Shown here: positions 4,626 to 63,869 of the stretch, piece by piece
Layout: the number at the start of each line of letters is the position of its first letter
Position numbering within the stretch: the first letter of the stretch is position 1
Source of the DNA: a virus
Taxonomy: Duplodnaviria > Caudoviricetes
Length of the DNA stretch: 64,000 nt
Strand: one strand, 5' to 3'
IMG/VR virus record: IMGVR_UViG_3300047469_000103
Coordinates: 160,001 to 224,000 of that record
Notes under the pieces: model-generated
Database searches by the model: none
What the model was told of the DNA's origin: nothing
What the model saw: only the letters and a program-made list of their open reading frames with translations
Program-made: the position numbers and the translations under genes

Positions 4626-4849
4626 TATTTGCTCTCCACGTAGGTGACGAATTCTTTACCGATGGTTGCCCATTTCTCTAAATCGAATTGCGACAGCTTG
4701 CGAACGTGGAAGGTTTTACGTTCCATGTAAATTCCGGCTTCTGCATTTGTGTAATCCAAATAGTATTGGTGCAGGCCAGCTTTACCGAGAGTCAAATGCG
4801 GGCAACCGATCGCAGCGATGATCGTGGTTTTATTAATTGCCATGTTCAA
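4625..4849 (-). CDS. Hypothetical protein
   Basis: ORF coupled to the next gene, downstream of a promoter. Confidence 0.7.
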   Translation of the reverse strand: MNMAINKTTIIAAIGCPHLTLGKAGLHQYYLDYTNAEAGIYMERKTFHVRKLSQFDLEKWATIGKEFVTYVESK

Positions 4850-21863: not shown

Positions 21864-22259
21864 TTATTTCGGCACCTGATAAAAGTATTCGAGTCGGAGT
21901 TCGAAGGTAACGGCAAGCACGCCGCACACGGGTTCATAGCCCAGCATCTTGTAATCGAAACTATCGAAATAGAAGCCTTCGTAATTAAACGAGAAGTGCC
22001 AGCCTTCCATGTTGTTCTGGTAGCCTTGGCCCACGTCATATAGCAAGCGGCACATGTACTGCGGATGCAATTCAATCCGAATGCGCGTCTTCAGTACGTG
22101 CAATTGACTGGTGCCGAAATTCTCTTCGAAAGATTCAACTTCTTCGACGTTCGCCATGTAGCACGCACCGTTCCAGAACGGCAATTTCATGTCCGAGGTA
22201 GCTGCAATTTTAAAAGCAGATACAAGTTTGGTAAACTGCTTTATTGATTCGACTCGCAT
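21864..22259 (-). CDS. Hypothetical protein
   Basis: ORF track. Confidence 0.7.
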   Translation of the reverse strand: MRVESIKQFTKLVSAFKIAATSDMKLPFWNGACYMANVEEVESFEENFGTSQLHVLKTRIRIELHPQYMCRLLYDVGQGYQNNMEGWHFSFNYEGFYFDSFDYKMLGYEPVCGVLAVTFELRLEYFYQVPK

Positions 22260-22882
22260 TTTATGAATCTCCCAAATCGTTTTTGGATTTCATGTTCGTA
22301 GTGACGCAGGCGCGTGTGCTTGCCGTATTGGTAGTCAGACACCGCCGTGAATTTTATCGTGATGGTTTCGCGTGAATGTTTCGCTGTACCAAACTGTGCG
22401 TCCATGTCGGAAAGATAGAACAGCATTCCGCCAATGTTGACCGGGCGCATTTCATCACCTTTGAACACGGCTTCTGAGAGCGCTTGGTATTTAGCCCAAA
22501 TCTTTTTTTCGTCGCTGTGATACAAAGTCGTGGTAAGTACGAACGTCGGCGGGCAACCGGCGAAACTCATTGTGTGCCCCATCCACTCTACGTTAGTGAC
22601 GCTTTGTTCATGCAGGGCATTGACCGGAACGAACACGTAAGATTCGTCTTTAATATTCAGCAGAATCAGTTTCGGTTTCCGTTTCCCCGCTGGATCAAGG
22701 CAGAAATACCGCATCAATTCGCGCATGCTTTTGTGATACTGCTTGTCGTATTTGAAATACGCCAAACGCTCAGCAAGCGGCACCGGTTTATCAGCTTGTC
22801 GATATTTGATTCGACCGGGCGGCTCTGACTCATCAAAGTCTAAATCGTCTTCTTCGTGGTAATCATGATCGTCATCGCACAT
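22241..22882 (-). CDS. Hypothetical protein
   Basis: GAGGA SD; acidic N-terminus. Confidence 0.7.
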   Translation of the reverse strand: MCDDDHDYHEEDDLDFDESEPPGRIKYRQADKPVPLAERLAYFKYDKQYHKSMRELMRYFCLDPAGKRKPKLILLNIKDESYVFVPVNALHEQSVTNVEWMGHTMSFAGCPPTFVLTTTLYHSDEKKIWAKYQALSEAVFKGDEMRPVNIGGMLFYLSDMDAQFGTAKHSRETITIKFTAVSDYQYGKHTRLRHYEHEIQKRFGRFIKCESNQ

Positions 22883-22932
22883 GGCAAGTCCTCTTCAGGT
22901 ATGTCATGTATTTACAGTTTTACGCACCAACG

Positions 22933-22965
22933 AAAAAGCCCCCGAATCCGAAAGGAAACGAGGGC
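22933..22965 (-). terminator. Intrinsic terminator closing the frameshift unit
   Basis: GCCCTCG...CGGGGGC stem plus TTTTT. Confidence 0.7.
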
Positions 22966-22970
22966 CGTCG

Positions 22971-23792
22971 TTAAGCATAGATCAAATCACGCACTTCAAA
23001 ACCTTCAAACGAATGCAACAGAACAAAGTCTGAATAATTCGTCGTTGTGTAAATCGCATCCGCCGTAGCCACTGCACCGTTCGCCAAGGAAAGCGCCGGG
23101 GCATTCAGGTCGGAGAAAACAAAAGTCCACACACCGTTTTTGCAGTTGAAGAAAACAGGCGATTGATCGTCAGTTGCATAGGCAGAAACAACAACGATTT
23201 CTTTAACCGCGTCGTACCACATATCCGTCACAGTGAAACCTTCGATATTCGTAACGCCTTCGGAGACAAGTTGCCCCATGCGCCCGCTGAAAGTTTCCAG
23301 AGTGTTTGGCGTGTTAACCGTCACATGGAATTTATTGCTAAACGCCATGTTAACCACACCTTCGCCCACGGTCACAACGTCCCACAATGGGCCGTACATA
23401 ATCCGACCGTCTGCTGTGCCGAACAGTGGAATTCCATTCACGTTTAACGACGATGTGAAAACCGTTGCGTCTTCGTGAACAGTCTGCCAAGTAGTGCCAT
23501 CAAATGATCGAATACCGAAACCGTTTTCTGCGACATAGAATTTCGTGCCGGAGAAAACCACGTGACTGCACTCACCAAAAACTACATCTTCAGCATTCCA
23601 GTCTTGCTTGTCAGTAGACGTAAAAATCCCTTCGCCTACTGCGACATAAATTCCTTTGCCCGTTGCAATGTCGTTTATTTTTGCTGGAACAGATGCAGGT
23701 ACAAAACCATCAGATGTTTGAACGTAAATTCCATCTTGGTTAGTACCTGAGCCACCGACTACAAATGCTTGTCGTGGAGCAGGTTTTACGAC
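22971..23792 (-). CDS. Startless -1 frame encoding a beta-propeller-like extension (273 aa), reached by frameshift from 23786-24736
   Basis: 77 open codons upstream of the track GTG (23561) with no ATG/GTG/TTG; bounded upstream by TGA; IYVAVGEGIFTSTDKQDW-type repeats. Confidence 0.8.
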   Translation of the reverse strand, partial: VVKPAPRQAFVVGGSGTNQDGIYVQTSDGFVPASVPAKINDIATGKGIYVAVGEGIFTSTDKQDWNAEDVVFGECSHVVFSGTKFYVAENGFGIRSFDGTTWQTVHEDATVFTSSLNVNGIPLFGTADGRIMYGPLWDVVTVGEGVVNMAFSNKFHVTVNTPNTLETFSGRMGQLVSEGVTNIEGFTVTDMWYDAVKEIVVVSAYATDDQSPVFFNCKNGVWTFVFSDLNAPALSLANGAVATADAIYTTTNYSDFVLLHSFEGFEVRDLIYA

Positions 23793-23798
23793 TTTTTT
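23745..23798 (-). promoter_or_regulatory. -1 programmed ribosomal frameshift signal
   Basis: A_AAA_AAG at 23798-23792, 7-nt spacer, hairpin ACCTG/CAGGT, CCAC/GTGG, ACAA/TTGT at 23784-23745. Confidence 0.8.
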
Positions 23799-24736
23799 GT
23801 GACGAACGCCGTTGCTTCAACGAGTACAGGTTCACCACTGCCAAACTTCGGCGTAGCGACCAGAACAATCGAGAATTCACCGAGCGGAGAACCAGCTTTA
23901 TTTCGTTCAACGGTTGACGGAATGTAATCGCTGATATGACGGAACGCGTACTGCTGAATCATTTGCGTAACAGACAGGTCGCCGTTGGTTGCCGAGTCAG
24001 CCACAACACGCGAGCCGCTGTTGTACCAAACGTAGTTTTTTGCAGTGCCGTTGTACGCCAGTTGCAAATCCCACTTCAGTGCATTTTCAGTGGCGGTCGG
24101 ATCAACGTCGATCATCAAAGAAATGTCGTACATATCCGTAACGTTTGGCACGTCAGGATTCAGCGAGCCGACGCTAACTGCAAACGTCCAGTTTTCCAGC
24201 GTATCCAATTCGATATCGAACGCGCCAGCGCCGTCACCGTAATAGGTCGCATCGTTGTATTTGCGAATTGCCAAACCCATTTCGATATCGGAGTTTTTAC
24301 CGATTACGAAATCGTCAGCCGGATTACCAATACCCGAAAGCATGTATTGTTTTCCGTCGTCGCCTTCAATAACAAAAGTGATTTCACCTTTGCCTGTTGC
24401 AACAAGCGGTTCATAACCAACGTCACCCAACGCGCCACTTGGAACGAATGGGCCGACAGCAATACAAATACCGCCCAAATACATCGACATGATTTTGCCG
24501 TCGATTGCAGTGGTGATGCCTTCCAGCGTCATTGCAGTTGTTGCGCCGTAATAGTTACTGATCGAAGTACGGAATGCTTGGCTATTAAAAATCTCCAACA
24601 TTTCTTCTTCGGTTACTTGAATGCGGCGGGTCTTCGGAGGGGAACCGGCTTCGTTAATGGCGGCGATGATTTGCGCCAAGACGCCTGTATAATCCTGAAC
24701 TTCCATAAGGGTTTCCTGTGTAATTAAGGAAGACAT
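23786..24736 (-). CDS. Probable virion protein (beta-rich, acidic); short form of the frameshift pair
   Basis: 316 aa ending TKKS; late-type motif upstream. Confidence 0.8.
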   Translation of the reverse strand: MSSLITQETLMEVQDYTGVLAQIIAAINEAGSPPKTRRIQVTEEEMLEIFNSQAFRTSISNYYGATTAMTLEGITTAIDGKIMSMYLGGICIAVGPFVPSGALGDVGYEPLVATGKGEITFVIEGDDGKQYMLSGIGNPADDFVIGKNSDIEMGLAIRKYNDATYYGDGAGAFDIELDTLENWTFAVSVGSLNPDVPNVTDMYDISLMIDVDPTATENALKWDLQLAYNGTAKNYVWYNSGSRVVADSATNGDLSVTQMIQQYAFRHISDYIPSTVERNKAGSPLGEFSIVLVATPKFGSGEPVLVEATAFVTKKS

Positions 24737-24769
24737 TATCTCCCTTTATTTAAAAGGAGGACTCCCTAT

Positions 24770-24776
24770 TAAATTA
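24770..24776 (-). promoter_or_regulatory. Candidate late promoter TAATTTA
   Basis: 34 nt upstream of 24736. Confidence 0.5.
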
Positions 24777-25097
24777 GCGCTTTGCTTGATCCATAATGCG
24801 CGACCACATTTCGTTCGTGAAAACTTCTTTGTCGTCATGGAACTTTTCTACGTTATCGCCACACTGCGAACAGAAGTTTACGCGGATGATGTGGCCCGGA
24901 TGTGGCAATGCTTTTCGCGAGGTATTGAATTCGATTACCTGTTCACCGAATTCCTGAAGTTTTTCGCCCCAATCCTTTTTCGATACAGTCTTGCCTGCAA
25001 TCAAAGCGATAATGCACGCGCCCGGTTCACATGGTTTGATTATCCCGGCCTTTACTTCGTCGCGTAGCGTAGCGTTACAGCGTGCAGAAAGTTCCAT
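24774..25097 (-). CDS. Cys-containing hypothetical protein
   Basis: C...CSQC. Confidence 0.65.
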   Translation of the reverse strand: MELSARCNATLRDEVKAGIIKPCEPGACIIALIAGKTVSKKDWGEKLQEFGEQVIEFNTSRKALPHPGHIIRVNFCSQCGDNVEKFHDDKEVFTNEMWSRIMDQAKR

Positions 25098-25680: not shown

Positions 25681-25902
25681 TTAAAACTTCGCTTCTTTTA
25701 CATTCCGATGCACTTGCAGATAAGCGATGATGTAGATCGCACCAATCCACATTGCACCGCCGAGCCACGACAACAGCACGGCTGCATATTCGAAATAGCC
25801 GCCGAGTGAATTGAGGTAGTCGCCCACATAACAAATCAACCATGTAATTAAGCACATGAGAACAACGGTTGCGAACGAAAGTATGTGAGCGAAATTTCTC
25901 AT
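25681..25902 (-). CDS. Two-TM membrane protein
   Basis: Hydrophobic; coupled to dcd. Confidence 0.65.
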   Translation of the reverse strand: MRNFAHILSFATVVLMCLITWLICYVGDYLNSLGGYFEYAAVLLSWLGGAMWIGAIYIIAYLQVHRNVKEAKF

Positions 25903-26618
25903 TAGCCGAGCATCCGTGGAAGTGTTGGGATCGCGCTTTGATTCATGTATTTACCGCCTCGTTCGGCATAGGAAGTATCGCATTCCTCATTGCCTTCCAA
26001 GAACAGAATCTGTGCGCAGCCTTCGCCCGCGTAAATCTTTGCAGGCATAGTTGTCGTGTTGCTGAATTCCAAAGTCAGCGAACCTTTCCAGTCCGGTTCT
26101 AGTGGCGTGACGTTTACAATCAGGCCGCAGCGGGCATACGTCGATTTGCCGATGCACAGAACCAAAACGTTTCGCGGAATGTGGAAGTTTTCCGGCGTGT
26201 TCGCCAGAGCAAAACTGTTCGGCGGCAGATACAGTGCTTCACCGTTTGGAATATCCTTTTCAACGAAATTGTCTTCGTTGAAATCTTTCGGATCGACACA
26301 CGAATTGTTGATGTTTGTGAACACCTTGAATTTGTTGCCGACACGAATGTCATAGCCGTAGGAACTGAGGCCATACGGAATGATTTTGCGATCACCGTCG
26401 TGCGTAACTTGCTTGGCAGAAAAAGGCGAGATAATCGGATCGTATTCATACGCCCGCAATTTCAAACCCATTTCTTCGTGCTGTGCGTCCGAGTACATCG
26501 ACCAGAACTTGCCGTCTTTTGAATCGGCCCAGCAGTTGAATTTGCCGTGGCGCATCCATGCAAATTGTGTGCGTGCGACTGCTTTGGAAGCAATCCACTT
26601 ATCTGACATGATGCTCAC
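25902..26618 (-). CDS. dcd: dCTP deaminase
   Basis: [37 protein letters not shown]...GGKYMNQ motifs. Confidence 0.93.
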
Positions 26619-44865: not shown

Positions 44866-44998
44866 AAAGTGGTAAAACACATATGGAGCGAATCAGCCTA
44901 CCCTAGTAAGCTAATATTAAATTAAGGTCTTTTTCAAACCCTATTAAAGCGTTTGTTTCGTTTAAATGTCCGGGCGAACGTCCATTCATTTATTCCTT

Positions 44999-46153: not shown

Positions 46154-47620
46154 TCAGTCAGTGCTGTAATCGAAATCGCCGTCGTAACGAATGTAATAAC
46201 GATTGTCCACAGCGCCGATGCTGGCTTGCGCATTATCAGTTTCGAAGTGATAAACAGTGCGCTCGCCATCAGAGGTAGTGCTAGGCATAAATTCCATGCC
46301 AGTGAACAGCTTTTGCAACGCGGTAATTCCGCCGTGGCAATCGAACACAACGCCGTCACCACATTTTTCGTAGTTTTCGCACTGTGCAAGATTCAGCAGA
46401 TAGCGCAGAGATTCCAGCGCATTATCGGAAGCAGACGCAAACATTTCGTCACGACTTACTTGGAAATCACGTGCGGAATGATACTGCAAAATATCCGACA
46501 CTTGATCTACAATTAAATTAATGGTATCCGAATGATCGTCGTCACCATCGAACGAGGATGCAGCAGCTTTGTATCCCGATTTTCTGTGCATTTCAGCAGC
46601 GTGCCGCATTTTGCTATCGCGCCCGTTTACATCTTTAAGGAAGTCTTTATCTTCCGGCGTGATATTTTTGTCGCCATTGGCAATACGCTGTTTGATATCG
46701 GTGTGACGTTTACGCTCGGCAGAAGAGACACGGAATTTACCGGATTTCGCATCGTCCATAAACGAATCGTGATCGTCGCCGTCTTCGTCCAAATCTTCCG
46801 GTTTAACGCCCGCTGCTGCGGCTGCTTCTTTGCGTTCCCGTAGACGTTTCTTCTCACGCGCTTGACGCAATTCGTCAATGTCATCACGCAAGTTTTTACC
46901 GTGCTTAGAACCGGCCCACATATCGAACATTACTTTGCCGACAAGTACACCCAACGGCGCAGCGGCCATGCTGCAAGCCATAATCCCGGCACCAAACAAT
47001 GCCATTGTCGCCACACCGGCCAGCACCTTTTGCATTGCGTGCTTTTCAGTGGTCTTCATTTCATCAGGTTTTTTATCGCCGTTCATGAGGCTTTTAACAG
47101 CGTCCAAACCTTTGCGATACATAACCGGTTGTTTCGTCGCCTGCTGTTGCACGACAGTAGCGATTTCGGTTTTGTTCTTTTTAATCGTGTCGCTGGCTTC
47201 GCGCAGATGATCGTCTTTTACCTGATTCAACGCCGACAGACTTTGCGGATTAATTACCGCAACGTTTGCTTTATTGTAATCGGCAATATCACGACGCACC
47301 TTTGCAACTTCCATGCGTTTTGCGTGAACTTCTTTTGTGGACGGGAAGCGGTCGCCGCCATGCACCACAACTTCGTTCTTTTTGTTCGGCATTTTCGGTA
47401 CAAATGCACCGTTGAAATCATCCGCTTTTTCTTTCGAATCGCCACCCATAAGAAAGCGGTGGCTGGAATGCGGATAAAGTTTAATGTAGCGCTCACGTGC
47501 CGGTTTTGCCAGCTTCAGAAATTCGCCTTTACTCAGGCGTTTCCGCCATTGCGACATATCTTTAACTGGCGCACTGCCGGAGTCGTCATCTTTGAACGCC
47601 CACGCTAGAGAGATATACAT
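46154..47620 (-). CDS. Hypothetical protein with hydrophobic hairpin; possible internal head / ejection protein
   Basis: Start refined to MYISLAW with AGGAAG SD; VLAGVATMALFGAGIMACSMAAAPLGVLV segment. Confidence 0.6.
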   Translation of the reverse strand: MYISLAWAFKDDDSGSAPVKDMSQWRKRLSKGEFLKLAKPARERYIKLYPHSSHRFLMGGDSKEKADDFNGAFVPKMPNKKNEVVVHGGDRFPSTKEVHAKRMEVAKVRRDIADYNKANVAVINPQSLSALNQVKDDHLREASDTIKKNKTEIATVVQQQATKQPVMYRKGLDAVKSLMNGDKKPDEMKTTEKHAMQKVLAGVATMALFGAGIMACSMAAAPLGVLVGKVMFDMWAGSKHGKNLRDDIDELRQAREKKRLRERKEAAAAAGVKPEDLDEDGDDHDSFMDDAKSGKFRVSSAERKRHTDIKQRIANGDKNITPEDKDFLKDVNGRDSKMRHAAEMHRKSGYKAAASSFDGDDDHSDTINLIVDQVSDILQYHSARDFQVSRDEMFASASDNALESLRYLLNLAQCENYEKCGDGVVFDCHGGITALQKLFTGMEFMPSTTSDGERTVYHFETDNAQASIGAVDNRYYIRYDGDFDYSTD

Positions 47621-61680: not shown

Positions 61681-63375
61681 TTATTTTCCAATACGTTTTT
61701 GTTTACCCTTCTCGAAACTCATTTTCTTTTTCGAGTAACGGTCTTCTTTTGCGTCATTGCGCTTGTTGTGAATCGAAGCAGCGATACCGCCGAACAAGCC
61801 ACCGGTAGGCATACGCGCAATTGCGCTCGTTTCTGTTTCAGCATCGACTTCTTCGTAACTTATGTCACGCTTTACATTTTTCAGCCATTTGCCCATCCGC
61901 TCCAATGCAACCGGCGTCGGCGTGTGGTTAAATTCAACTGCCTGATTCCACGTGTTCGAACAATACTTCAAAGAGGCGTTCGCTTTAGTGTCTACAAAGA
62001 ATCGAATAATCGGCTGACGTTTTGCAGGATCAGGTGTGAGAATACGCGAGCTTTCCTGTTTCCAGTTCGGTTCGTTATTCATCGGCATGACGTAGTAAAG
62101 ACACGACCACGGTTTGATGTTGATACCGCGCTGCAACAGACGACGAATCCCGACAACCACGCGGATTTTACGCTCGCCCGCTTGCTGCTTAATCCAGTCG
62201 CGACGTTCTTTGTTTTTCTTCGGATTGCTACCGCCAGTAAATGCTGCGGCAACCTCATAACCGACACGATCATTAATCCGTTTTACCAGTTCTTCGATGT
62301 GGTCTTTGAAGTGGCACGGAATAACGATGGAATGTCCGGCTTCCAAATCTTTCATAACCCAATCAATAATCAGGTCATTTCGTTTCTTGTGCTTCGCGAG
62401 CATTTTGCCGAGGAACACAAAGCCCGGTTTCCCTTTGAACGCACCTTTCGATTTCACACCCGTATCAACGGCTAGCAATTTCGCTACCATTTGACCACGT
62501 TTGATTTTCGACTTCACTTCACCAATTACAAGCGCGGTGATGATGTGCTTTCCGTCCTTCCGGGTTTCCGTACCAGTGCAACCCATACGCACGCGCATTT
62601 TCATGCTGTTCATTACGTCAGCGAATTCAGGCGCACCGGTGGCCTGTACTTCGTCCACAATTACGGTGCCGAAAACTTTGTTCACCTTCGCCAAGAATTT
62701 CCGACCTTTCGGACTCAGAAAAGACTGGTAGGTGATGATCCCGATTTGAATGTCTTCGAGGTCTTTTGCTGTCTTGATAAATCCGAAAAGTTTCTTCCCG
62801 GTTTTCTTCTCAAGTGCAGGTAGGTTCGTGCTTTCGCGAATGTCCCCAAGGAACTGATTCAGGAAGTCATATTGGTCAGCGATCAACAGGACTTTGTAGC
62901 CCAGTTCGATTGCGATTTTTAACGCGGTCAAAGATTTACCAGAACGCGGCGGAAGCACGAAAAGGCCGTACTTGGCCTTTTTCATTTTCTCCACGGTTTT
63001 CAATTGGTACGAATACCAGTCGCGGTCTTCGCCCAAACTGATTTTAATCTTGTAGTCAAATGGAACGCGGGTTCGCTTATCCACGACGGTGTAATCATCG
63101 AAGTCGATTTTCATCTTTTCTTCGATGTTGTTTCGGTCGCCCATCGGCAGACCGATATATTCGATGTTCCCAAAAACACGCTTGTTAGCAAGTTGGTAAG
63201 AGCCGTTGAAATTCTCACAGCCCTTACACTCAGGCACGGGACGTTTCGGGCGGAAGTCACAGGACTTGCAGCCGAAGTCCGAAAAGAAGTTTTTAAAATA
63301 TTCCTTCTTTACCCGCTTCTCGCTAAGATCAATGCTCGGCACATAGAACTTATCCGATACGATTATTTTTCCCAT
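61681..63375 (-). CDS. SF2 DNA helicase (UvsW-like)
   Basis: PPRSGKS Walker A, DEVQ, TGT, RGINIK motifs; N-terminal Cys cluster. Confidence 0.88.
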   Translation of the reverse strand: MGKIIVSDKFYVPSIDLSEKRVKKEYFKNFFSDFGCKSCDFRPKRPVPECKGCENFNGSYQLANKRVFGNIEYIGLPMGDRNNIEEKMKIDFDDYTVVDKRTRVPFDYKIKISLGEDRDWYSYQLKTVEKMKKAKYGLFVLPPRSGKSLTALKIAIELGYKVLLIADQYDFLNQFLGDIRESTNLPALEKKTGKKLFGFIKTAKDLEDIQIGIITYQSFLSPKGRKFLAKVNKVFGTVIVDEVQATGAPEFADVMNSMKMRVRMGCTGTETRKDGKHIITALVIGEVKSKIKRGQMVAKLLAVDTGVKSKGAFKGKPGFVFLGKMLAKHKKRNDLIIDWVMKDLEAGHSIVIPCHFKDHIEELVKRINDRVGYEVAAAFTGGSNPKKNKERRDWIKQQAGERKIRVVVGIRRLLQRGINIKPWSCLYYVMPMNNEPNWKQESSRILTPDPAKRQPIIRFFVDTKANASLKYCSNTWNQAVEFNHTPTPVALERMGKWLKNVKRDISYEEVDAETETSAIARMPTGGLFGGIAASIHNKRNDAKEDRYSKKKMSFEKGKQKRIGK

Positions 63376-63869
63376 TTTTTCCTGAAGGGCGCTTCCCCGT
63401 AGGTGCTATTGACGTTCGCAATATCCCGTTTGTATTCGATGTTGTACGGTTCAACCACTGGAAAGAATTTCTGGCGATGTTCTGCACACATGCTTTCCGG
63501 TCGGCTCACGTCAATCTGAAGTGGCATCTGCGATTCGACAATGTAATCCAGATATTGATTGGTCAGTTCTGGCGTCCAGTCAATCGGGAAAACCGTCTGC
63601 CAATGGTTCGGCTTGTAGTCGAGCAAGTAACGGAACGTCGCACGTTTCAAACCTTCCAAATCTGCCACGGTAAATACGCAAATCATTCCTACGCGAAACA
63701 GCAAATGGTGTGCGAGAATTCCGATGTGTGATTTGCGATCCGGGTTTGTTTCCAGCCACTGTTGCATGCTCGTGTAATACGTGAAATTTTCCACGTCACC
63801 CAAGACAGCAATAATCGGGATTGGAGGTGTAAACTGGAACGTCGGCAGTGTCTGGTCTACAGGTTCCAT
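63363..63869 (-). CDS. Hypothetical protein
   Basis: 168 aa, coupled. Confidence 0.7.
   Translation of the reverse strand: MEPVDQTLPTFQFTPPIPIIAVLGDVENFTYYTSMQQWLETNPDRKSHIGILAHHLLFRVGMICVFTVADLEGLKRATFRYLLDYKPNHWQTVFPIDWTPELTNQYLDYIVESQMPLQIDVSRPESMCAEHRQKFFPVVEPYNIEYKRDIANVNSTYGEAPFRKKWEK

Follow-up and report, generated by a model that had tools for sequence, protein, structure and literature searches.

How is a long reading frame expressed that lies directly behind a complete gene, one base back from the frame of that gene, and has no early start codon of its own? The question is raised by a gene pair in a 64,000-nt stretch of DNA (positions 160,001 to 224,000 of IMG/VR record IMGVR_UViG_3300047469_000103; the whole analysed stretch is called the window). 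Judged by its sequence, the window is jumbo phage DNA, related to the Pseudomonas phages Lu11 and HRDY3. The two frames are very probably joined by a −1 programmed ribosomal frameshift that is conserved among relatives; the unit that carries it is late-type and self-contained, and belongs to a Lu11-like jumbo phage. The slip would append a whole predicted beta-propeller to part of the copies of an accessory protein. The elements of the site are the following.

23786..24736, minus strand: zero-frame gene of the short product; ATG 24736 gives 316 aa and ATG 24706 gives 306 aa.

23792..23798, minus strand: slippery heptamer A_AAA_AAG, zero-frame codons ACA AAA AAG.

23786..23788, minus strand: zero-frame stop TAA, one codon past the heptamer, closing the short product.

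23785-23791, minus strand: spacer UCGUAAA between heptamer and hairpin.

23745..23784, minus strand: candidate frameshift-stimulating hairpin, 40 nt, starting 7 nt 3' of the heptamer.

22971..23795, minus strand: open reading frame (ORF) of the −1 frame, the extension, with 273 residues after the slip (23792..22974) and its stop at 22973-22971.

The zero-frame gene ends GTC ACA AAA AAG TCG TAA. The −1 frame is shut by TGA at 23819-23817 and is then open to the stop at 22973-22971. The first codon after a tandem −1 slip is GTC (23792-23790). A first-pass annotation had placed the heptamer, the hairpin and the end of the −1 ORF, with a closing TGA a few codons upstream; all this was confirmed on the sequence. 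It had also described the first 77 codons of the −1 frame as free of start codons, and the earliest ATG, GTG or TTG is indeed a GTG at 23561, 77 codons past the slip. The predicted products are 316 aa (34.0 kDa) and 588 aa (63.3 kDa), the long one with the predicted junction ...AFVTKKVVKPAPRQAF, also written ...EATAFVTKKVVKPAPRQAFVVGGSGT..., and the junction peptide ...VTKKVVKPAPRQAF.... This pair of sizes, as first proposed, is a correct reading of the window, but relatives share the second ATG (24706, MEVQDYTG...) as their start, and the sizes from there are 306 and 578 aa. Database gene calls list the window protein at 306 aa (P0001, on 4 contigs, the longest of 300 kb) and its orthologues at 306-312 aa. 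Two alternative starts for the short product are possible in the window. A 10-codon N-terminal extension, MSSLITQETL (24707-24736, minus strand), stands behind a strong Shine-Dalgarno sequence (SD; AAAGGGAGATAATG). It is present only in the window and the closest relative (L003/L007); all other orthologues begin at the MEVQ/MNVQ ATG.

Both strands of the window were scanned for classical heptamers in sense orientation that follow a long ORF, have a zero-frame stop close by and lead into a long −1 ORF. One site was found, and the layout is therefore more than chance. A second candidate, TTTTTTC at 63375 (plus strand), with a long upstream ORF and a 118-codon −1 ORF, was rejected as an artefact because it lies antisense to a 564-aa gene (61681..63375, minus strand) and a 168-aa gene (63363..63869, minus strand). 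Also rejected was a 'plus-strand terminator' at 23771-23792, which is merely the complement of the spacer and hairpin followed by a T-run complementing the heptamer.

The only clear phage relatives of the window in GenBank, by blastn and tblastn, are Lu11 (280 kb) and HRDY3 (314 kb), both jumbo Pseudomonas phages. Nucleotide identity to them is about 68%, and protein identity is 54% in the short part and 44-48% in the extension. Further loci were gathered from IMG/VR, protein collections and exact-protein look-ups, distinct loci only. Fourteen loci carry both ORFs: the window, HRDY3, Lu11, L003, L004, L005, L009, L010, L016, L019, L020, L021, L022 and L023. They comprise two isolates from different groups, together with IMG/VR, ENA and Logan assemblies.

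The slip site is conserved across these loci. AAAAAAG stands in the same frame in 14/14. A zero-frame stop follows it in every locus, at once in Lu11 and after one codon in the other 13, and the −1 ORF runs for 263-280 codons. Averaged over pairs of loci, nucleotide identity is 54% for the 60 nt before the heptamer versus 76% for the 57 nt from the heptamer onward. The codon preceding AAA AAG is ACA, GCA, GTA or TCA (T, A, V or S), with A as third base throughout (14/14). The residue varies and the wobble A is fixed; selection is therefore on the nucleotide, not on the residue. Position 7 of the heptamer is G in all 14, although AAA would encode Lys too. Such invariance fits a need for an AAG codon in the A site rather than a need for run length.

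The hairpin follows at a constant spacing. In the window (ACCUG..CCAC-GAC...GUC-G-GUGG..CAGGU) its minimum free energy is −15.3 kcal/mol (z = −2.1 against dinucleotide shuffles). The same hairpin is predicted at this 7-nt distance in 13 of the 14 loci, with energies of −15.3 to −25.2 kcal/mol (relatives −16.5 to −25.2) and z of −1.3 to −2.7. Standard pairs fill 95% of the hairpin cells in the 13-sequence alignment, versus 23-46% if the 3' partner is shifted along. Variants of pair 24-48 are A-U, G-U and G-C, and two outer pairs change from U-A to U-G and from A-U to G-U. Synonymous variation is suppressed over the same stretch. Codon entropy, compared at conserved residues with at least four-fold degeneracy, is 0.60 bits in codons 3-19 after the heptamer (n=11) versus 1.42 bits in the rest of the extension (n=65; Mann-Whitney p = 5e-6). 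For example, the Gly of GSGT is GGT in 13/13 and the Pro of KP is CCT in 13/14. No conserved pseudoknot between the loop and downstream sequence was seen in the alignments by eye. No Rfam match was obtained for 23600-23900: cmscan with all families at E <= 10 returned two unrelated hits at chance level.

The same long protein would be made if RNA polymerase added one A to the A6 run in part of the transcripts. Such transcriptional slippage gives an identical junction (TKKVVK...), and the computed results do not separate the RNA route from the ribosomal one. Some jumbo phages, moreover, use non-canonical RNA polymerases, which may differ in slippage. Productive slippage in bacteria, however, typically needs runs of about 9 or more, and a run of six is short. 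The invariant G at position 7 also argues against this route, since AAA would keep the Lys and lengthen the run. The conserved hairpin, placed 7 nt away, and the low synonymous variation are in keeping with a stimulator that acts on the ribosome. Transcriptional slippage is thus considered improbable, though it survives better than any other alternative to a ribosomal −1 frameshift.

A ribosomal frameshift is further indicated by the beginning of the −1 frame. No ATG, GTG or TTG of this frame is conserved among the 14 loci; the first possible start ranges from codon 13 to codon 91, and no conserved SD was found at such starts in the loci compared. The encoded peptide is conserved from its first codon at the heptamer (KKVVKPxPR..VVGGSGT).

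Three more distant orthologues of the short gene have no propeller ORF, and these lack the heptamer: L014, at 46% identity and on a contig of 280 kb; L015, at 40% identity; and EST35_0383 of phage PA5oct. Their genes end ACG AAA GCG TCG TGA (L014; ITKAS, then stop), AAG CGG GCC GTG TAA (L015; IKRAV, then stop) and ACA AAA GAT TTT TAA (PA5oct; VTKDF, then stop), and in all three a terminator lies directly 3' of the short gene. The heptamer is accordingly present at 14/14 loci with a separate extension ORF versus 0/3 loci without an extension.

The opposite arrangement exists as well. An exhaustive HMMER search with the extension returned P0025 (locus L018, Logan ERR3200795; uncultured), a single 582-aa in-frame ORF that holds both modules. 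Its residues 1-305 match the short protein (41% identity, E 8e-72) and residues 308-582 match the extension (37% identity, E 1.2e-42). The join (...ATAKITYKEPTPTPKKTFIIGGNG...) lies at the homologous point and passes through KEPTPTPKK. The junction DNA of P0025 contains no slippery heptamer, so only the long form is possible there. The locus is syntenic, in the order DCD ... T4_Y16D ... gene ... DUF1353. Compared with the window, P0025 has the same modules in the same order and syntenic place, at 582 aa against the predicted 578 or 588 aa. The in-frame fusion shows both modules at work as a single polypeptide in this lineage, just the product expected from the frameshift.

These data bear on the possibility of two separate genes, in which the propeller would be translated from an internal or non-canonical start or by termination-reinitiation, the heptamer being incidental. 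GenBank (Lu11_0042/0041; HRDY3 XDJ15261/15262) and all gene callers do give two coding sequences, and the conserved −1 sequence sets in right beside the zero-frame stop, a layout also seen in coupled genes. The starts annotated there, however, remove 32-90 conserved residues, including the first propeller strands. Neither start nor SD is conserved, the first start falling anywhere from codon 13 to codon 91; heptamer and wobble A are invariant; the heptamer is missing wherever the extension is missing; and a natural single-ORF fusion has the same junction. Two genes are therefore rated slightly less probable still than transcriptional slippage. The −1 frameshift claimed by the first-pass annotation is upheld by the same observations: the heptamer in 14/14 loci, the lack of a conserved start, the absence of the heptamer without the extension, and the fusion at the same junction.

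That annotation had itself posed the possibility of a homopolymer error at the run, a true A7 read as A6, by which the locus would be a simple fused gene; a recently broken gene, now a pseudogene, would look alike. A-runs are error-prone on some platforms, and a truly fused relative exists in P0025. Yet 14 independent assemblies, which differ in laboratory, platform and sample, have the identical A6G, the short protein of the window recurs on 4 contigs, and the junction of P0025 is of a different, non-slippery sequence. There is therefore no A6/A7 homopolymer error. The extension, moreover, is under purifying selection and yields a confident fold. Error and decay are essentially excluded.

The extension was modelled with AlphaFold2 (AF2) from a 13-sequence alignment. 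The model is all-beta, with 28 strands, a predicted local distance difference test score (pLDDT) of 91.6 and a predicted template modelling score of 0.88. It consists of a Pro-rich linker (VVKPAPRQAF) and a 7-bladed beta-propeller, which bears out the first description of the domain as propeller-like. The confident fold indicates a functional domain, not decaying sequence. Foldseek against the PDB gave a template modelling score (TM) of 0.71 to 7-bladed designer and WD propellers, with YCF48 matched too; the top AFDB clusters are Ycf48-like and exo-alpha-sialidase-like. Two motifs, STDKQDW and SFDGTTW, resemble the Asp-box (S-x-D-x-G-x-T-W). In HMMER searches the blades match multi-repeat proteins with DUF6242, BNR or Sortilin-type domains. 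Pfam and PHROGs gave nothing above threshold for either part, the sole Pfam match of the window protein being PF23366 at E 0.005, under the cut-off. As a model, the extension would form an autonomous domain on a linker, probably facing outward.

The short protein (AF2 model, pLDDT 84.7) begins with an alpha/beta part, an Ig-like beta-sandwich spans residues ~140-304, and its C-terminal strand is confidently modelled up to the junction. Foldseek against the PDB, and VIA-wide, found no specific solved relative, only generic Ig-like sandwiches (Z <= 7.3, TM ~0.2). In BFVD it matches I1TQ43 of Lu11, a 'possible surface protein' of the Yersinia jumbo phage fHe-Yen9-04, and gp9 of the Sphingomonas phage PAU (H9NBN6; E 5.6e-15, root-mean-square deviation 3.6 A over 218 columns). 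By BLASTP, residues 126-313 of the window protein align with residues 103-282 of PAU gp9 (28% identity, E 2e-12). The alignment stops at the C-terminus of the window protein; gp9 (768 aa, annotated in GenBank as 'capsid decoration protein (banana)') runs on in frame for 486 residues. These 486 residues were considered as a relative of the propeller and rejected, as they show no similarity to the extension. PA5oct EST35_0383, a tblastn match of the short protein, is annotated 'structural protein, ESI-MS/MS'. The short protein thus joins a family found in jumbo phages, whose members are putative proteins of the virion surface or capsid decoration. On these homologies a virion location of the short protein, probably on the capsid surface, is plausible. 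Cryo-electron microscopy of PAU reveals extra density in the form of an arch on peri-pentonal hexamers (PMC5646251), and the PAU 'banana' may be this peri-pentonal arch.

The proteins also bear on a last alternative, a frameshift of the tail-assembly-chaperone type (lambda gpG/gpGT) in place of one in a virion display protein. To our knowledge G and GT are absent from virions. The G/GT shift is, as Xu et al. (2004) is cited in PMC6316719, the most widespread programmed frameshift of tailed phages, and a downstream Lu11 gene is annotated 'putative tail assembly protein', but this alternative is very improbable. The gene does not lie between the genes for tail tube and tape measure; it is flanked by dCTP deaminase, small hypothetical genes and DUF1353. 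Its two parts, 306 plus 273 aa, far exceed the G/GT size and fold as an Ig-like sandwich and a beta-propeller. Its homologues include PAU gp9, by annotation a capsid decoration protein, and a virion protein of PA5oct.

Under the favoured reading, a programmed −1 ribosomal frameshift, expression of the locus would proceed as follows. Most ribosomes would read ACA AAA AAG TCG and then stop, releasing the short protein (306 or 316 aa, about 33-34 kDa). On A_AAA_AAG some would move back by one base as tRNA-Lys exchanges its pairing with AAA-AAG for AAA-AAA; the hairpin 7 nt downstream would aid this, and probably also the adjacent stop. Slipped ribosomes would read 273 further codons and give a protein of about 62-63 kDa (578 or 588 aa), made of the same N-terminal body, a short Pro-rich linker and the 7-bladed beta-propeller. 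The virion would then carry a fixed minority of subunits showing the propeller, probably a ligand- or glycan-binding module. The first-pass annotation had likewise proposed a fixed ratio of the two products and a possible adhesin or lectin role for the domain. We infer the ribosomal nature of the slip, its efficiency, the virion or capsid location and the binding function. More tentatively, the frameshift may be a stoichiometry device for a giant capsid: a short decoration subunit would occupy defined lattice positions (compare the PAU arch), and the slip rate would set the number of copies with a bulky 7-bladed Asp-box propeller. Such a propeller would serve as an adhesin that binds glycans, holding the virion reversibly to polysaccharide of the host or to environmental matrices. 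This proposal is possible but less probable than not.

Several observations weigh against this reading or parts of it. The stability of the hairpin is modest (z about −1.3 to −2.7). Among the 13 sequences no double-sided compensatory change was scored and shuffle controls were not exceeded; classical covariation, which the first-pass annotation had proposed as a test, is therefore not demonstrated statistically, whereas suppression of synonymous variation is (p = 5e-6). Conservation of the hairpin could largely stem from the conserved encoded peptide. In L021 (2791-2860), the most divergent locus (38-41% identity), A_AAA_AAG and the adjacent stop are kept and the conserved hairpin is absent; the alternative there is a 7-bp AU-rich stem 15 nt downstream with z = +0.5. 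Either the stimulator was replaced in L021, or heptamer and stop are enough. As this locus keeps the heptamer without the hairpin, the hairpin is a replaceable enhancer and not the core of the signal. No SD enhancer of the dnaX kind, 10-14 nt upstream, is conserved in the locus alignments, inspected by eye. The virion or capsid location draws on distant homology, with 28-30% identity to PAU gp9 and PA5oct EST35_0383 and on the annotations of their depositors. The gene itself stands among nucleotide-metabolism and small hypothetical genes, not in the head/tail cluster. Support for the earlier label 'probable virion protein' is indirect, by way of PAU gp9 and a PA5oct virion protein.

The gene and its extension are bounded by two further elements.

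24766..24777, minus strand: promoter-like motif (C/G)TAATTTAATAG, with exact TAATTTAAT at 24768-24776.

22933..22965, minus strand: intrinsic terminator GGCCCUCG...CGGGGGC followed by UUUUU, scan match 22954-22939.

The motif (G/C)TAATTTAAT, with variants (G)TAATTTAA/T, is shared by the window and nine relatives, among them Lu11, HRDY3 and L014 (which has no extension); it precedes the start codon by about 55-65 nt. Exact copies of TAATTTAAT in the window number three, all on the minus strand (24768-24776, 44916-44924 and 46512-46520); with one mismatch allowed, its overall count in the window is not above chance. A GC-rich hairpin with a T-run follows the extension stop in 14/14 loci. No terminator lies between the two ORFs. 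The first-pass annotation had assigned the unit a motif and a terminator of its own, and both are present and conserved in relatives. On sequence grounds, the reading as a self-contained late-type unit with putative promoter and terminator holds. A different motif, ACTGTAAAT, occurs in five exact copies in the window, all on the minus strand (22910-22918, 19881, 28997, 51358 and 63868). The copy at 22910 lies between the extension terminator and the next gene (22882..22241); in nearly all relatives, too, the motif comes after the terminator, and ACTGTAAAT matches a Lu11 feature annotated 'putative middle/late promoter'. By its sequence, TAATTTAAT looks like a second class of promoter-like motif, different from ACTGTAAAT.

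Upstream of the frameshift gene lies a DCD gene (dCTP deaminase/dUTPase family; 25902-26618, minus strand), with several small ORFs between it and 24736. A DUF1353 gene is found downstream in relatives. The synteny of DCD, small ORFs and DUF1353 is kept in all relatives, and the frameshift gene is therefore in a conserved non-structural neighbourhood, outside the head/tail cluster.

Frameshift-extended virion proteins, in smaller phages, and the signal formed by A_AAA_AAG and a stem-loop are both well known. A_AAA_AAG with a 3' structure is the −1 signal of Escherichia coli dnaX and of insertion sequence (IS) elements. The heptamer of dnaX and IS3/IS911 is identical, and there too a short spacer (7 nt here) leads to a 3' stem-loop and a stop lies nearby. 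The outcome differs: dnaX truncates its product and IS elements fuse the transposase, whereas here a large domain is added and no upstream SD-like enhancer was detected. With no Rfam match and no conserved SD-like motif, the site would therefore work like the dnaX element without being its homologue. In T7 10A/10B and in the major head and tail proteins of Lactobacillus phage A2 (the A2 work is cited in PMC4759559), ribosomes slip by −1 close to the end of a structural gene, and the minor long form made in this way co-assembles with the short one. There, as predicted here, the long form keeps the whole body of the short form; in T7 and A2 the ratio is set by translation. The T7 and A2 proteins are major proteins, whereas the present one would be an accessory, decoration-type protein of a jumbo myophage. 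Their additions are a short tail or an Ig-like extension; here the addition is a complete 273-aa 7-bladed propeller, and the signal a dnaX-type A_AAA_AAG with hairpin.

In SPP1 gp17.1/gp17.1* and MTP-TpeX of the lactococcal 936 group, a frameshift adds a display or carbohydrate-binding domain to a fraction of the subunits, with a gp17.1 to gp17.1* ratio of 3:1 in SPP1 (PMC6316719, PMC4759559). As proposed here, a shift at the stop of a virion gene, putative in the present case, appends a domain. These systems, however, use +1 shifts at the 'shifty stops' CCC.UAA or CCC.UAG in tail tube proteins of Gram-positive siphophages, in contrast to a −1 tandem slip in a Gram-negative jumbo phage. PAU gp9 shares the homologous core domain and has a long C-terminal region from the same boundary, but as one continuous ORF without frameshift.

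No description of the present frameshift was found in the literature searched, and the Lu11 and HRDY3 records give two hypothetical coding sequences. In Lu11 (L002, JQ768459, 3646-5372) Lu11_0041 is annotated from a late internal start (locus position 4683), and in HRDY3 (L001, PQ015379, 3644-5373) XDJ15262 likewise (locus position 4837). The late starts drop 32-90 conserved residues and leave 'intergenic' gaps of 117-264 nt. In both phages the −1 frame is open, stop to stop, back to the end of the upstream gene and codes for conserved sequence there. These annotation errors arose because the frameshift was not recognised. New are a clade-wide frameshift site in Lu11-like jumbo phages, its place in an accessory protein of a decoration family, the addition of a whole 7-bladed propeller, and the series of short, frameshifted and fused forms.

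The annotation is thereby corrected for at least two published jumbo-phage genomes (Lu11 and HRDY3), and likewise for a dozen metagenomic relatives. The locus provides a well-supported case of recoding in jumbo phages; in the literature searched, no such case turned up for an accessory structural protein. With a short-only form, a frameshift mixture and an in-frame fusion all present in nature, the question 'why frameshift, not fuse?' can be tested directly in cultivable Lu11 or HRDY3 (Pseudomonas). If the proposed stoichiometry device is true, short-only form, mixture and all-long fusion would be steps by which the adhesiveness of the surface is tuned. As a candidate module for surface binding, the propeller bears on the adsorption of very large virions and may offer a display site for engineering.

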